From a phage, in assembly GCA_022897995.1 (NCBI GenBank), contig GCA_022897995.1_4763.1: a DNA stretch of 64,000 nucleotides. One strand, given 5' to 3'. Below, piece by piece: positions 5,666-29,780 of the stretch. The translations under genes were made by a program, and so were the position numbers. Numbering within the stretch: the stretch's first letter is position 1; the number at the start of each line of letters is the position of its first letter. Below the pieces are notes generated by a model that searched no databases, was not told the origin of the DNA, and saw only the letters and a program-made list of their open reading frames with translations.

Positions 5666-6667
5666 ATGAATACTATGACTAAAGCAAAAATCACCGTCTC
5701 TGACCGTAACGTTCAATGCCTGGATTCTGAAAAACAAATCAAACTGGCTAAACAGTGGGGCGAAGGTAAGTTTACTACCCGCGAAGCACTTGCGGCAGCA
5801 TTTGGGGTATCTCGTCGTACTGCCTCCCGTGTATTACTGATTCAGAAAGACGCAGTAGCGGAAGGTCGCAAGGCACTAGAAAAACGTAAAGCACGCCGTA
5901 AAACCAGTAAAGGAAAAGGCGGTGAACGCGCAAAAAAGCCCGTGACTACTTCCTCAAAAATCGTAGCAATAGCCTCAACTAAGTTTATTACTATTACATG
6001 TGGTGACATTGTTTATACTGCTGATCCGTCGCATGTTAACTTTAATGAAGCACTGGAAGCGATTAAACATAATGATTTCATCAAAGCTATTACGCTGATT
6101 GACATTAAGAAAGCGGTTGAAGTATATTATCACGGCGCTTTCCGTATCGAAAATGGTATTGTGTATTATCATAATATTGTTCTTGATAATAATCTGACTC
6201 GTCGAGTTGTGGAGTCGATTAAAGAGAATAAGCCATATACGCACTATCTGAACTTCTTTGAGAAGTGCAAGAAAAACCCTAGCCGTAAGGCCGTAGATCG
6301 TCTATTTGACTTCTTAGAGCACAACGACATTGAGATCGGGGAAGATGGTTGTTTCTATGCATGGAAACGTGTTGATGTTGATTATAAAGATTTCTTTACG
6401 CATACGTTTGATAATAGCCCAGGTCGCACGGTTAAAATGAAGCGTAAAGACGTGGACCCAGATGATGATCGCACTTGCTCTAATGGCCTCCACGTTGCAG
6501 CGAAACACTATATTCCGCACTATGGCGGTGGACGAGGCCGAATCATTAAATGTAAAGTTGATCCGCGTCACGTTGTAAGTATCCCGAAAGATTATGCGAA
6601 TGCCAAAATGCGCTGTCATCGTTACTATGTGGTTGAAGATGTAACCGAAGGTTTTAGCCATTACTAA
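5666..6667 (+). CDS. rIIB: rIIB protein
   Basis: 333 aa; C-terminal half closely resembles T4 rIIB as recalled (AVDRLFDFL, FYAWK, TFDNSPG); adjacent to rIIA. Confidence 0.8.
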   Translation: MNTMTKAKITVSDRNVQCLDSEKQIKLAKQWGEGKFTTREALAAAFGVSRRTASRVLLIQKDAVAEGRKALEKRKARRKTSKGKGGERAKKPVTTSSKIVAIASTKFITITCGDIVYTADPSHVNFNEALEAIKHNDFIKAITLIDIKKAVEVYYHGAFRIENGIVYYHNIVLDNNLTRRVVESIKENKPYTHYLNFFEKCKKNPSRKAVDRLFDFLEHNDIEIGEDGCFYAWKRVDVDYKDFFTHTFDNSPGRTVKMKRKDVDPDDDRTCSNGLHVAAKHYIPHYGGGRGRIIKCKVDPRHVVSIPKDYANAKMRCHRYYVVEDVTEGFSHY

Positions 6668-7349: not shown

Positions 7350-7712
7350 ATGCTAGGTCATTCTAAAATAGAAGATTGCTCATTCAGAGCAATGAAAGAT
7401 GATTTTTCGGTCCTGTACGCGTCTATCCGAGAGTTGTTTGTAGATTTTAAGCAATTCAGAGAATACAAAGGCGTTAAGATGCGGGAGTGGGTATTCTGGC
7501 CTTTCTATATCATTACTCTGTTTTCTATGGTATTTTGTTTTGTCGGGATCTCTATCGCTAGTTTTGTCACTTGCGTTTTCCTGATTATCAGGTGTATCAT
7601 GTTTGCTTTGATTGCTGCCCCGTTTATTGTGTCAATCCTTCCGTTAAAATGGCTATTGGATTGGGCTGATAAATCTGATAAAGTAAAGAATGTGATTTGT
7701 AAGCGTGTATGA
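7350..7712 (+). CDS. small integral membrane protein
   Basis: 120 aa with long hydrophobic stretches (WVFWPFYIITLFSMVFCFVGISIASFV, FALIAAPFIVSIL). Confidence 0.45.
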   Translation: MLGHSKIEDCSFRAMKDDFSVLYASIRELFVDFKQFREYKGVKMREWVFWPFYIITLFSMVFCFVGISIASFVTCVFLIIRCIMFALIAAPFIVSILPLKWLLDWADKSDKVKNVICKRV

Positions 7713-9084
7713 GGTGAAGATGGATAAAATTAGTCAAATTGTAAACACATTTACTTACCGCAGCCTTGAAAGCATTGTACATAATGAAGCTAAGGAATAT
7801 GCGATCTATTCTGCCGAGGAACGCGGGATTCCTCAATTAGTGGATGGGCTTAAACCAGTTCAACGCTTTGTTATGGAGTGCGCACTTCAAAAGAGTAAAG
7901 GCGACCGTAAGAAATTCCGTAAGATGGCAGATATTGGATCTGGTGTTGCTGAGTTGGGTTATCACCACGGGGAAACTAATGCCGTAGAAGCCGGATCACT
8001 CATGGCGAATACATGGAGCAATAATACTCCACTGCTTGACGGTCAAGGTAACTTCGGATCGCGTTTAGTCCAGAAAGCAGGTGCGGCACGTTATATCTTT
8101 GCTCGTGTTCATGAAAACTTCTTTAAAATCTATAAAGATATGAATTGCGCACCTAAACACGAAGATCTGGAACACATCCCGCCAGTGTTCTACTTGCCAG
8201 TTGTGCCAATGGTATTGGCTAATGGTATTAGTGGTATTGCTACAGGGTATAAAACTGACATTTTACCGCATTCACTGGAAAGCCTTATTGAATGCACAGA
8301 GCTAGCACTTGCCGGAAAACTGGATAAAGAACCTAGTGTTCAATTCCCGAAATTCACGGGTAAAGTTATCCCTCGTGATGACCGAGATGGTGTCATTCTT
8401 GAGGGTACATATGAACTAAACGGCAAGACTAAGCTGACAATATCAGAAGTTCCTTATAAGTTCGACCGTGAAGAATATGTAGCGGTACTGGATGCACTGG
8501 AAGAAAAAGATCTGATTGTCTCATATAATGACCGTTGCTCTAAGGATGGATTCAGATTTGAAGTAACACTGAAACGCGATTATTTCAAAAGCGAAGATGA
8601 ATCCGCTCGACATGAGCAAATCATGAAGGATTTTAAACTAACGCAGTTAGTAGCCCAGAATATCGTAGTAGTTAACGAACGTGGTTTAGTTGAAGTATTC
8701 GAGAAAGCTAGCGACCTGATCCGTCGATTCGTCGAAATCCGATTAGGGTATGTCGATAAACGCATTGAATTGATGCAAGCGGAAACGCTGGAAGCATACA
8801 ATTATGCAATGGCTAAAGCCGAATTTATCGATCGCGTAATTAAGGGCGAAATCGAGCTACAGGGCAAGAAAAAGGCCGAGGTAATGCAATCCATCAATGG
8901 ACATGAAAAACTGCGTCCATACGCCGATAAGCTAGTTTCTATGCCATTGTATAGCGTTACTCAAGAAGAGTATGATCGACTGGTCAAAGATGCCGATAAA
9001 CATCATAGTGAATATGAGTATTGGACAAAGACGACCGCAATGAAGGAATATAAGAAAGATCTTAAAGAACTTAAGAAGGGTTGA
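7705..9084 (+). CDS. 52: DNA topoisomerase II medium subunit (GyrA-like cleavage/religation)
   Basis: 459 aa (T4 gp52 about 442 aa); GyrA-like N-terminus; same operon direction as 39. Confidence 0.85.
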   Translation: MYEVKMDKISQIVNTFTYRSLESIVHNEAKEYAIYSAEERGIPQLVDGLKPVQRFVMECALQKSKGDRKKFRKMADIGSGVAELGYHHGETNAVEAGSLMANTWSNNTPLLDGQGNFGSRLVQKAGAARYIFARVHENFFKIYKDMNCAPKHEDLEHIPPVFYLPVVPMVLANGISGIATGYKTDILPHSLESLIECTELALAGKLDKEPSVQFPKFTGKVIPRDDRDGVILEGTYELNGKTKLTISEVPYKFDREEYVAVLDALEEKDLIVSYNDRCSKDGFRFEVTLKRDYFKSEDESARHEQIMKDFKLTQLVAQNIVVVNERGLVEVFEKASDLIRRFVEIRLGYVDKRIELMQAETLEAYNYAMAKAEFIDRVIKGEIELQGKKKAEVMQSINGHEKLRPYADKLVSMPLYSVTQEEYDRLVKDADKHHSEYEYWTKTTAMKEYKKDLKELKKG

Positions 9085-24940: not shown

Positions 24941-24948
24941 TATTTATA
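24941..24948 (-). promoter_or_regulatory. T4-type late promoter (TATAAATA)
   Basis: Minus-strand TATAAATA about 29 nt upstream of the gene 34 start, with SD AAGGAG between. Confidence 0.55.
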
Positions 24949-24984
24949 AAATAAGGCTTGATAGAAACAAAAGAGGATGATATT

Positions 24985-25170
24985 ATGGTTAAAGTTAATT
25001 TGTCAGACGGTGCAAAATGGGTAGTTGACAGAATCCCAGATAAGGATTATAATCATTTCCGTGCCGAATTAAACAATGCTATTCTGCGAGTTATGGAGAA
25101 ATACGGGTATGATCGTGAAGTATCTAGCTCGTTTGATGAGTCTGTTGTTGTGAGAGTGGAGAGAACTTAA
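24985..25170 (+). CDS. hypothetical protein
   Basis: ATG 24985 after GAGGATGATATT; the tracked frame starts at 24958. Confidence 0.4.
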   Translation: MVKVNLSDGAKWVVDRIPDKDYNHFRAELNNAILRVMEKYGYDREVSSSFDESVVVRVERT

Positions 25171-25172
25171 TT

Positions 25173-26120
25173 ATGACGTATAACCCGTTTACAAAAACTA
25201 CCGCTACACTTAATGATTTTTTTGATGACCCAGAAGATAAACTGCCGGAAGGTGTGCATTTGATTGATATGTCGCAGCTTATGATTGCTACTATCTCTCA
25301 TACATTTAAGCCGGAAGATCCGATTAATGAAGGTATGATCCGTCATCTTATCCTTGACACCATGCGTTATAATATGACAAAATTCAAAGAGCAATACCCG
25401 ATTACGGTACTTGCCTTTGACTCTAGCAAAGGTTACTGGCGACGTGATATCGCACCTTATTACAAGCGTAACCGTAAGGAAAAGCGAGACGCAGATCCGC
25501 GTGATTGGGATATGATCTTTGCGGCGATCAATAAGATCACCGAAGAGTTTAAAGAGAACATGCCTTATCACGTTATTAAGGTTGACAAAGTTGAAGCGGA
25601 TGATATAATCGCTGTGTTAACTAAAAAGTTTTCTGTAGAAGGTCGCCAGGTGCTAATCAACTCCGGCGATGGTGACTACACACAGTTACACAAATACAAA
25701 AATGTGAAACAGTGGGCGCCAGTACAGAAAGCATGGAAGAAGTGCAAATATGGTAGCCCATACAAAGACCTTATGGTAAAATGTGTTAAGGGTGACGCAA
25801 AAGACGGTGTAGCCTCTGTCAAATGTCGTAGTGATTTTATTATCTCTCGACTGGAAGGGGAACGGGCTAAACCAGTTGCAACCAAATGGTTAGAGCAAAT
25901 TTTCGATGCCGAAGATCCAAAGTCTTTGATGACAGAGGAAGAAGCACGACGCTTTGACGAAAACCGCGAACTTATTGATTTTGAATTTATTCCTGATAAC
26001 ATTGAGTATGAAATTTTGTTAGCATGGGAAAAATCTAAACCAGCACCACGCGGTAAAATTTATAACTATTTTGTAACAAATGCGTTAGTTAAAATGTTGC
26101 AGAAAATTGGTGAGTTCTAA
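25173..26120 (+). CDS. rnh: RNase H / 5'-3' exonuclease (FEN family)
   Basis: 315 aa (T4 RNase H about 305 aa); acidic FEN-type motifs; position between 34 and 59. Confidence 0.8.
   Translation: MTYNPFTKTTATLNDFFDDPEDKLPEGVHLIDMSQLMIATISHTFKPEDPINEGMIRHLILDTMRYNMTKFKEQYPITVLAFDSSKGYWRRDIAPYYKRNRKEKRDADPRDWDMIFAAINKITEEFKENMPYHVIKVDKVEADDIIAVLTKKFSVEGRQVLINSGDGDYTQLHKYKNVKQWAPVQKAWKKCKYGSPYKDLMVKCVKGDAKDGVASVKCRSDFIISRLEGERAKPVATKWLEQIFDAEDPKSLMTEEEARRFDENRELIDFEFIPDNIEYEILLAWEKSKPAPRGKIYNYFVTNALVKMLQKIGEF
25581..25610 (+). promoter_or_regulatory. candidate internal sigma70-like promoter inside rnh
   Basis: TTGACA 25581-25586, 16 nt spacer, TATAAT; could drive the downstream CYTH-like gene. 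Confidence 0.25.
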
Positions 26121-26130
26121 GGGTTGACAC

Positions 26131-26727
26131 ATGAAAGAACTTGAATTAAAATACTATGCACACTCACAGGAAGGTGTAGAAACAATCCATGATGTGTGGG
26201 TAGCAATGTATGACGGGTACAATCTCGTAGACCGTGATAACATACTAAAACACGAATTTTATTATGATACAGAAGACCATGCATTACGCAAAAAAGGAAT
26301 TTATGCACGACTTGACGTTTACAGGTCATTGGTCATGGTAAAAATTGGCGATAGTGAATCGGGACTCTTCAACCGAGAAGAAATTACTTTTTCAACAATG
26401 GATGATTTCTATCATTATGTTGATAGTCTGGGCGTTAACTCCGACCTTATTGTGCCTTTACTGCAAATAATGACACATCGCAAGTCATTGACTCTAGATA
26501 TGGGTTGTGGTATAGTGGAAATGTGCAAAGACACTTTCTATTATCGCAAAGTAGGCGAAAGAATGGGCGACGCTCACTATGAAATTGAGTTCGAGTTAAA
26601 ATCGGGTGATGAAAAAGCACTTGACATTATCCGAGAAATGATGCTAGAATATGTAGGTGATGACTTACGTCCTAGCGAAATATCAAAAGCTGAACGTGGT
26701 TTTCAATTAATGACTAAAGAGGGTTAA
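26131..26727 (+). CDS. CYTH-like (triphosphate tunnel metalloenzyme) domain protein
   Basis: N-terminal ELELKYY (ExExK signature) and C-terminal EIEFELK acidic pattern; 198 aa; inserted between rnh and dsbA. Confidence 0.45.
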   Translation: MKELELKYYAHSQEGVETIHDVWVAMYDGYNLVDRDNILKHEFYYDTEDHALRKKGIYARLDVYRSLVMVKIGDSESGLFNREEITFSTMDDFYHYVDSLGVNSDLIVPLLQIMTHRKSLTLDMGCGIVEMCKDTFYYRKVGERMGDAHYEIEFELKSGDEKALDIIREMMLEYVGDDLRPSEISKAERGFQLMTKEG

Positions 26728-26731
26728 TATT

Positions 26732-27007
26732 ATGGCTGAACAGAAAAAAGAAAAAGTAGTATTTGATGAAGCAGTACACGGAAATACCCTGGCACAACTG
26801 ATTAAAGAAGCCAGCGATCAGAAAACCATTCAAGAAGCATATGGCGATAAGATCAAAGAGATCAAACAGCGTGCTAAAGAAGAATTAGGCGTAGATGGTA
26901 AAATGTGGGGCATTCTGTTTAAACTGTATCACCAGCAACAGCGCGAAACCTTCGAAGCAGAACGCGACGAAGCGGTAGAACTCTATGATCGGGTGTTCAA
27001 TGCTTAA
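26732..27007 (+). CDS. dsbA: dsDNA-binding protein DsbA (late transcription enhancer)
   Basis: 91 aa (T4 DsbA about 89 aa); position between rnh and 33. Confidence 0.55.
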   Translation: MAEQKKEKVVFDEAVHGNTLAQLIKEASDQKTIQEAYGDKIKEIKQRAKEELGVDGKMWGILFKLYHQQQRETFEAERDEAVELYDRVFNA

Positions 27008-28956: not shown

Positions 28957-28983
28957 AGCCTCCCTTCGGGGAGGCTTTTTTAT
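28957..28983 (+). terminator. rho-independent terminator after gene 32
   Basis: AGCCTCCCcttcGGGGAGGCT hairpin followed by TTTTTTATT. Confidence 0.65.
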
Positions 28984-29008: not shown

Positions 29009-29036
29009 TTGACATGTTGGCGAGGTAATGTATAAT
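29009..29036 (+). promoter_or_regulatory. sigma70-like promoter
   Basis: TTGACA 29009-29014, 16 nt spacer, TATAAT 29031-29036; leader contains ATCGAAAC. Confidence 0.5.
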
Positions 29037-29065: not shown

Positions 29066-29395
29066 ATGTTTTTGAATGCTACCCTTTCCCAGAAAAGTGA
29101 TAAAATCGAACTTCTGTATGTCATTGCTGATGTAGACGTACAACGAAGAAATATAGATTTAAAAATTCACAAATATTATACTATGAGCGAATATCACGAA
29201 ATCGAGATCCCACATAGTGTGTATCCCGCATTATTGTTAGGAAAAGGAAATCTAAGTGAATATTCTTTGAAAGTCATCAAAGATTCTAAATCAATGCTTG
29301 CTCATATGGAAAAAGATTTTCTTGATGAAGTTTCCGCGCTAGTTATTAAACTGAAAGAAGAAACAGCACCGCTTTTCATGGAACAAAAAGGTTGA
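29066..29395 (+). CDS. hypothetical protein
   Basis: 109 aa ORF with SD GGAGGATTAACA. Confidence 0.45.
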   Translation: MFLNATLSQKSDKIELLYVIADVDVQRRNIDLKIHKYYTMSEYHEIEIPHSVYPALLLGKGNLSEYSLKVIKDSKSMLAHMEKDFLDEVSALVIKLKEETAPLFMEQKG

Positions 29396-29419
29396 CTCCG
29401 AACACAGATGATGTATAAT
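29392..29419 (+). promoter_or_regulatory. sigma70-like promoter
   Basis: TTGACT 29392-29397, 16 nt spacer, TATAAT 29414-29419. Confidence 0.5.
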
Positions 29420-29450
29420 ACAAACATCAAAACAAAGAGAGGATTATATT

Positions 29451-29780
29451 ATGTGGACAGTAGAACAAATCGTAGATGAAACAGTAAGTATTATCGCATG
29501 TGGCACTATTGAAGAATGCCTTAAAGCCGCTAACCGTGAATGTATTACGGTTTATGAAGCCCGTCGCGGTGATGGTACTGTGTTAACAAGCGACTATCGA
29601 TATGAACCAAAAATGATTACCTTTCGTTTTTGGGAAAATGGTGTTAATGTTGGGGTATCTCACTTAAAACGTTTTCGTGATTATTCTGACCGTTATTTCA
29701 TCACACCGGATAACGGTCAAGAATTTAAGACAGCAATCACCGAAGAAAATGTAAACGAAAACTTCTTTAAACTGATTTGA
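29451..29780 (+). CDS. hypothetical protein
   Basis: 109 aa ORF with SD GAGAGGATTATATT. Confidence 0.45.
   Translation: MWTVEQIVDETVSIIACGTIEECLKAANRECITVYEARRGDGTVLTSDYRYEPKMITFRFWENGVNVGVSHLKRFRDYSDRYFITPDNGQEFKTAITEENVNENFFKLI

Follow-up and report, generated by a model that had tools for sequence, protein, structure and literature searches.

A divergent, phage-restricted CYTH protein at the rnh-dsbA junction of Krischvirus, with a re-tooled tunnel and an exchangeable core

The window, a 64,000-nt stretch of phage DNA, comes from a Krischvirus, i.e. one of the RB49/JSE/Phi1/GEC-3S-like coliphages. Pfam and PHROG scans gave the gene order gene 34 (minus strand), a small conserved ORF, rnh, a CYTH gene, dsbA, 33, 59 and 32. 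The CYTH gene (26131..26727, plus strand) runs from an ATG start to a TAA stop and specifies 198 aa; a preliminary description of this DNA had picked out the ORF by its ELELKYY and EIEFELK stretches, and it reads as claimed. It is flanked upstream by rnh, for the T4 RNase H/5'-3' exonuclease (25173..26120, plus strand; Pfam RNaseH_C 1.2e-37, 5_3_exonuc_N 7.9e-18), and downstream by dsbA, for the dsDNA-binding late-transcription protein (26732..27007, plus strand; Pfam Phage_DsbA 5.4e-22). The rnh stop lies 10 nt upstream of the CYTH ATG and the dsbA ATG 4 nt downstream of the CYTH gene, so the three genes are tightly packed. An AAGGG Shine-Dalgarno sequence (26119..26123, plus strand), read directly from the DNA 7 nt before the ATG, overlaps the rnh stop codon (26118-26120) and is the same in every aligned relative. 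Against relatives the dN/dS of the CYTH gene is 0.11-0.33, which marks it as a coding gene under purifying selection; the flanking genes have values of 0.00-0.34, mostly below 0.15.

Promoter assignments here are consensus matches only, and sigma70-type matches number 26 in the region, vs 11.5 ± 3.6 expected in shuffles. A perfect sigma70 consensus (TTGACA-17-TATAAT; 25025..25053, plus strand) upstream of rnh is a candidate early promoter for a transcript covering rnh, the CYTH gene and dsbA, a second perfect match (25582-25609) lies inside rnh, and an 11/12 match (26621-26650) falls in the conserved 3' segment of the CYTH gene, upstream of dsbA. The sole T4-type late promoter box nearby, TATAAATA (24941-24948, minus strand), serves gene 34. 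This arrangement makes early co-transcription with rnh likely, and early promoters of the sigma70 type would probably drive the CYTH gene along with the replication genes. The first perfect match is contained in the small ORF (24958-25170, plus strand) that abuts the 5' side of rnh; listed at 70 aa with a TTG start and annotated at 61-62 aa in relatives, this ORF is kept in all Krischvirus loci examined and matches phrog_3594 (unknown function) over residues 10-69.

Among 50,697 phage genomes, the 2.8-kb region is 90-96% DNA-identical to 59 records, all of them Krischvirus. The CYTH ORF is present in 59/59, with 82-92% protein identity except in vB_EcoM_Skers (58%), and no record of the CYTH clade was found outside Krischvirus in this collection, even when the most distant members were used as queries; DsbA is detectable in 1,404 of the phage records, the CYTH clade in 59 only. 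In T4 (NC_000866) 8 nt separate rnh from the dsbA that follows, so the ORF does occupy the T4 rnh-dsbA junction, as had been proposed. Like T4, six sampled genera are without it, with rnh directly abutting dsbA in Bragavirus phiP4-3, Dhakavirus IME08, Winklervirus CBH8, Marfavirus F48, Gelderlandvirus Melville and Tulanevirus Aes508. In an Acinetobacter Lazarusvirus a 76-aa ORF lies between rnh and dsbA. Three metagenomic relatives, P0043, P0044 and P0045 (49%, 38% and 34% identity), are each encoded immediately 5' of dsbA-33 on T4-like contigs; for P0044 and P0045 a related-locus search of viral contigs found nothing, and the context was read from their encoding contigs. The CYTH gene is linked to dsbA in every relative found. 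Since even distant relatives share the position upstream of dsbA-33, the gene is best regarded as an old lineage-specific occupant and not a recent insertion; it is a lineage-specific accessory gene. The allele in the window is closest to metagenomic copies (97-99%) and at most 92% identical to that of any genome in the phage collection.

Other differences among phages were seen around this block. Homing endonucleases fill differing gaps of the 33-59-32 block across phages, with none there in the window: Skers (locus L002) has an HNH gene between 59 and 32 and a GIY-YIG gene after 32 (5802-6398 and 7554-8597), T4 has SegG between 59 and 32, and CBH8 has segD between 33 and 59. In the window, gene 32 is followed by a GC-rich terminator-like stem-loop (28957-28976) and then by a perfect sigma70 consensus (29009-29036), a combination resembling the PeSL (promoter-early stem-loop) elements described for RB49 and Phi1 (PMC2839356). 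Two 109-aa ORFs (29066-29780) then precede frd; at the same place RB49, Phi1 and GEC-3S have a 392-486-aa ORF plus one 109-aa ORF, and a further contig (L006) has a single 109-aa ORF.

The earlier suggestion of a triphosphate tunnel metalloenzyme (TTM) type of protein is upheld by three approaches. The CYTH profile PF01928 scores 27.7 bits where the gathering cut-off is 23.2 (E 2.9e-6), and the match spans profile positions 1-178 of 179; Pfam finds this domain alone. Profile-profile alignment (hhalign) of the phage clade with 147 cellular CYTH proteins gave a probability of 99.95% (E 7e-38). An AlphaFold2 model built from 15 family members (pLDDT 89.3, pTM 0.82) has long tunnel strands and a C-terminal helix at 186-195, agreeing with the eight-stranded antiparallel barrel and plug helix of the fold. 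The product of 26131-26727 is, by these profiles and this model, a stand-alone, single-domain CYTH/TTM protein. When 1.84 billion cluster representatives were searched exhaustively with the profile, the phage clade proved to be a very small family, with 3 matches below 1e-30 and 6 below 1e-10; next beyond it come cellular CYTH proteins, in stand-alone (~200 aa) and CYTH-CHAD (~500 aa) forms. Escherichia coli YgiF is the best structural and sequence neighbour. We also note a metagenomic protein of 462 aa (P0048), whose N-terminal domain is CYTH-like, has ExExK and is fused to a kinase-like P-loop domain (AAA_28); that N-terminal domain matches the phage-clade profile (E 1.4e-9) with no Pfam CYTH match at E ≤ 0.001, and its architecture recalls plant TTM1/2 in reversed order.

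Four motifs line up with those of the family. The hallmark ExExK motif, E3-L-E5-L-K7 within MKELELKYY (26137..26151, plus strand), is invariant in the family and aligns to E4/E6/K8 of YgiF. On strand β3, Y58-A-R60-L-D62 (26302..26316, plus strand) is a variant of small-x-R-x-R on which MAFFT and hhalign agree. On strand β8, E151-I-E153-F-E155 within YEIEFELK (26581..26595, plus strand) is invariant and gives the intact ExE of hydrolase-type TTMs. Alignments also place S185-K186-A-E-R189-G190 (26683..26700, plus strand) on the C-terminal plug-helix motif that is common to YgiF (SKAARG).

The catalytic set of YgiF has been defined (Martinez et al. 2015, PMC4641920): metal 1 is bound, along with the triphosphate, by E160; metal 2, whose part is to activate the water that attacks, is bound by E4, E6 and E162; and the enzyme also needs R56, the essential arginine, and K69. 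MAFFT (149 sequences) and hhalign map YgiF E160/E4/E6/E162/R56/K69 to phage E153/E3/E5/E155/R60/K71. Fifteen residues are invariant in every family member: E3, E5, K7, R60, K71, R82, E84, R117, D134, E151, E153, E155, S185, K186 and R189. This invariance covers alleles whose cores share only 39-61% identity, and the basic tunnel residues R60, K71, R82, R117, K186 and R189 are all retained. One arginine of RxR is absent, its place taken by D62 in the MAFFT/hhalign register or by Y58 in that of HMMER. The HMMER register, which lies 2 residues off and sets Y58 opposite YgiF R56, was set aside as the primary reading, as MAFFT and hhalign disagree with it. We prefer R60 on R56 because it pairs invariant with invariant residues, two methods agree on it, and the hairpin geometry fits: the predicted strands 57-62 and 67-76 accommodate a β3-β4 loop 2 residues shorter than that of YgiF (ENGR turn). 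Were the HMMER register right, the catalytic arginine would be absent from the phage protein.

Six further residues, K40, Y58, D62, M69, F136 and H149, all on the tunnel-facing parity of their strands, set the clade apart, being almost absent from the 147 cellular relatives. The second arginine of RxR is Arg in 143/147 cellular CYTH proteins; the phage clade has Asp62, with Asn in its most distant member. Two residues before the catalytic arginine, almost all cellular CYTH proteins have a small residue (aromatic in 2/147) and the phage has Tyr58, replaced by Val or Ile in P0044 and P0045, the most distant clade members. The position of Lys40 is basic in 0/147, and the residue types of Met69, Phe136 and His149 are each shared by 1/147, with Gly at the Phe136 position in 112. 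The phage thus reads Y-A-R-L-D in place of the YgiF-type small-x-R-x-R; set against the W/YxRxR of the thiamine triphosphatase (ThTPase) subgroup, Y58 and R60 are present and the second Arg is Asp. ThTPase stacks the thiazole ring of its substrate on Trp53, at the position matching Tyr58 (PMC4641920, PMC8233210).

Deduced from strand order and parity, not coordinates, Y58, F136 and H149 would cluster with Y9, Y44 and Y138 at the plug-helix end, where ThTPase binds organic moieties, and by the same strand topology the metal-2 end would have K40 and D62, which may compensate for each other. Asp in place of the second tunnel arginine could weaken triphosphate binding. On the strength of the six re-tooled positions an organic triphosphate appears a likelier substrate than free tripolyphosphate, i.e. 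the residue pattern suggests a substrate other than the latter.

Most of the gene is an exchangeable cassette. In a 60-nt sliding comparison, nucleotide identity falls from 0.98 to ~0.5 at ~26160 and returns to ~0.97 at ~26577, and the drop is seen in two independent alleles, those of Skers and of the P0040 type. The core so delimited (codons ~10-149; 26160..26576, plus strand), defined by dS/dN, sliding identity, alignment breakpoints and allele clustering, is 48-69% identical in nucleotides to the Skers and P0040-type alleles, with flanks at 93-100%. The 3' segment (codons 150-198; 26577..26727, plus strand) is conserved at 93-95% nucleotide identity even where the core is at ~57%. Comparison of the window with Skers shows how local the divergence is: identity is 93% for rnh, 98% for dsbA and 97.5% for gene 59, and for the CYTH gene it is 57% over codons 1-150 (dS 1.85, dN 0.49) and 94% over codons 151-198. 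At least four core alleles exist, 39-61% identical to one another between flanks at 93-98%, with a common C-terminus that is 86-98% identical. In the phages of P0043, P0044 and P0045 the CYTH proteins are 34-49% identical, vs 71-83% for rnh, dsbA and gp33.

In the DNA alignments the 5' junction immediately follows ATGAAAGAACTTGAATTAAAATACTATGC, which encodes MKELELKYY with the ExExK motif, and the 3' junction is at TATGAAnTTGAGTTCGAG, which encodes YExEFE with the ExE motif. Because both junctions fall at catalytic-motif stretches, it is the DNA encoding ExExK and ExE that provides the patches of homology through which exchange takes place. Mosaicism on a finer scale is seen among closer CYTH alleles, and once in rnh. 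The rnh patch, 60 nt in its 3' part (25978-26037), is 65-72% identical to Skers, Phi1, RB49 and GEC-3S and 100% identical to L006, with the surrounding rnh sequence at 87-100%. Since dS is saturated, the divergence is better explained by old alleles imported through recombination than by positive selection, which it does not demonstrate. Three other origins were considered and rejected. PeSL cassettes flank whole ORFans, whereas the junctions here lie inside an ORF; the PeSL paper (PMC2839356) makes no mention of the present locus. A diversity-generating mechanism or in-situ hypermutation conflicts with the saturation of dS (1.85) alongside dN and with differences that involve all base types. 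Recent capture of host ygiF conflicts with an identity of just 22-23%.

Conservation within the cassette is higher at strand positions that face the tunnel than at outward ones (0.72 vs 0.49, p 3e-4; 0.64 vs 0.49, p 0.017, with the canonical catalytic residues excluded), in a test that is partly circular, as strand parity was set from known catalytic residues. One phage, vB_EcoM_G2494 (locus L012, 601-1196), lacks 1 nt at codons 58-59, which breaks the CYTH gene into ORFs of 66 and 130 aa, and it has several private substitutions close by. Either the gene is a pseudogene there although the phage is viable, which would imply that it is dispensable, or the sequence is in error.

Taking motifs and model together, we consider it likely that the phage CYTH protein is a metal-dependent triphosphate phosphohydrolase of the TTM type, a statement about enzyme class and chemistry; most likely it would be an early-expressed and dispensable one. 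It would remove the terminal phosphate from a triphosphate-bearing substrate in a reaction dependent on Mg2+ or Mn2+, by the two-metal mechanism established for YgiF, AtTTM3 and ThTPase. The substrate-metal complex would dock on E153 (metal 1), while E3, E5 and E155 would hold metal 2, activating the attacking water. R60 would stabilise the leaving group, and the phosphates would be bound by K7, K71, R82 and R117 together with K186 and R189 of the plug helix. The substrate might be a nucleotide, a 5'-triphosphate end of an RNA or oligonucleotide, or a small-molecule triphosphate. Between phages, the core (codons ~10-149) is swapped, as deeply divergent alleles, by recombination at the two motif stretches, leaving the tunnel interior conserved.

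The closest relatives by structure and sequence are inorganic triphosphatases, so free PPPi or short polyphosphate stays a simple alternative. The protein would then be a YgiF-like inorganic triphosphatase or short-chain polyphosphatase acting in the infected cell on free PPPi or polyP, perhaps to free phosphate for nucleotide synthesis or to remove a polyP-linked stress signal, and its clade-specific residues would merely tune stability. This is a real if minority possibility. It accords with YgiF as best neighbour, with nearest cellular relatives that are stand-alone CYTH and CYTH-CHAD proteins, with a fully conserved two-metal site, and with the few GenBank records that say 'inorganic triphosphatase'. 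It sits less easily with an identity to YgiF of just 22-23%, the missing CHAD (polyP-binding) domain, the exchange of the second phosphate-binding Arg for Asp, and six tunnel residues of types found in at most 2/147 cellular relatives, one of them the ThTPase-type aromatic.

A second alternative concerns the biological role and is compatible with triphosphate hydrolase chemistry: a counter-defence or host-takeover enzyme that destroys a triphosphate-bearing stress or immune nucleotide, or trims 5'-ppp RNA ends. Candidate targets would include pppGpp, (p)ppApp, a linear 5'-ppp oligonucleotide intermediate or an aberrant dNTP signal and, among RNAs, host mRNA or the primer fragments released by the neighbouring RNase H; the surface would diversify because a host factor senses or inhibits the protein. 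We think such a role rather unlikely, although several features fit it. The gene is a lineage-specific accessory in an otherwise fixed junction, adjoins rnh and is probably co-transcribed with it; the protein has diverged far more than rnh, dsbA and gp33 of the same phages (34-49% vs 71-83% identity); at least four ancient alleles sit in near-identical backbones, conserved in the interior and variable outside; and the tunnel has been re-tooled with an aromatic platform. Against it, the overall dN/dS is below 1 and the saturated dS indicates imported old alleles, patchy mosaicism occurs in rnh as well, a PADLOC search, which covers defence rather than anti-defence models, gave no match with the phage protein, and no paper found links a CYTH protein to phage counter-defence. 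Literature searches on phage CYTH/TTM proteins, a Krischvirus triphosphatase and RB49/ygiF found nothing relevant, nor did recent phage gene-essentiality studies. We hold the most elaborate version to be doubtful: a TTM of new specificity, serving counter-defence or takeover, would hydrolyse a triphosphate-bearing nucleotide signal or RNA 5' end early in infection, and cassette exchange would keep its exposed surface polymorphic in response to a host immune factor that recognises or inhibits the protein.

It is very improbable that the protein is a non-catalytic binder, i.e. a degenerate TTM that sequesters a triphosphate ligand or serves as a structural or regulatory partner of the neighbouring replication and late-transcription proteins. 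One canonical tunnel arginine has been lost, non-enzymatic TTM folds do exist (Mediator Med18/20 is among the structural matches), and linkage to dsbA and gp33 is tight in all relatives; yet metal ligands and a catalytic arginine that are invariant down to 34% identity are hard to explain without catalysis, and purifying selection is concentrated on the tunnel interior.

Several phage records annotate the gene as adenylate cyclase, a label that, in a passage of PMC3440374, is presented as the historical default for CYTH proteins. Class IV cyclases carry HFxxxxExExK, in which HF serves nucleobase stacking (Vogt et al. 2021, PMC8233210); in them ExA replaces ExE on β8, and a small residue replaces the first Arg of xRxR (PMC8233210), ExE on β8 being the hydrolase-type motif (PMC8233210, PMC4641920). 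No HF motif was found before ExExK in the phage protein, where just M1-K2 precede; ExE is kept, with E155 invariant and no Ala as in cyclases; and the first Arg of xRxR is retained in the MAFFT/hhalign register. The NCBIfam equivalog TIGR00318 (cyaB) gave no match at E ≤ 0.1. With all three published signatures failing and this profile negative, the record label is unsupported, and it is scarcely credible that the protein is a class IV (CyaB-like) adenylate or nucleotidyl cyclase whose product, cAMP or some other cyclic nucleotide, serves to manipulate the host. On these motifs, the gene should be annotated as a hydrolase-type triphosphate tunnel metalloenzyme and not as an adenylate cyclase.

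CYTH/TTM enzymes are ancient and widespread, and their physiological roles are mostly unclear even in E. coli. The Krischvirus gene offers a tractable case for the role of a TTM in vivo, with a small soluble protein, easy phage genetics and a natural allele series. It has been kept amid a block of replication and late-transcription genes with its tunnel conserved, six residues re-tooled and the rest swapped between lineages. New here are the signature of a re-tooled tunnel and the allelic cassette anchored on the motifs, each of them directly testable. If the arms-race reading proves true, this would be a new enzyme class in phage counter-defence and the first TTM assigned to phage-host conflict, as well as a case in which alleles are swapped within a gene at the codons of its catalytic motifs; if false, it is an ordinary accessory gene.

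Among known systems, the orthologues are the Krischvirus hypothetical proteins RB49 ORF244c, Phi1 ORF245 and phrog_14893, 82-92% identical and at the same rnh-dsbA locus. Most records call the protein hypothetical, a few 'adenylate cyclase' or 'inorganic triphosphatase'; the RB49 GenBank entry carries the note 'similar to P45267, P30871, HI1598, ygiF', so that the likeness to the family was already recorded when the entry was annotated. Compared with CyaB (PDB 2fjt, 3n10), the phage protein is without HF, has ExE not ExA, and keeps the first Arg. Mammalian thiamine triphosphatase (PDB 3bhd, 5a64; W/YxRxR subgroup) is 14-17% identical; its second motif Arg is Asp in the phage protein, and the aromatic residue at 58 is not universal in the phage clade. 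E. coli YgiF (PDB 5a60/5a61), a CYTH-CHAD inorganic triphosphatase, is 22-23% identical and at 433 aa includes CHAD, whereas the phage protein has 198 aa and no CHAD; YgiF R58 corresponds to Asp62, YgiF G54, G145, L36 and I156 correspond to Tyr58, Phe136, Lys40 and His149, and the phage β3-β4 hairpin is 2 residues shorter. With its family assignment already public, the phage CYTH protein is a divergent, phage-restricted member of a known enzyme family.
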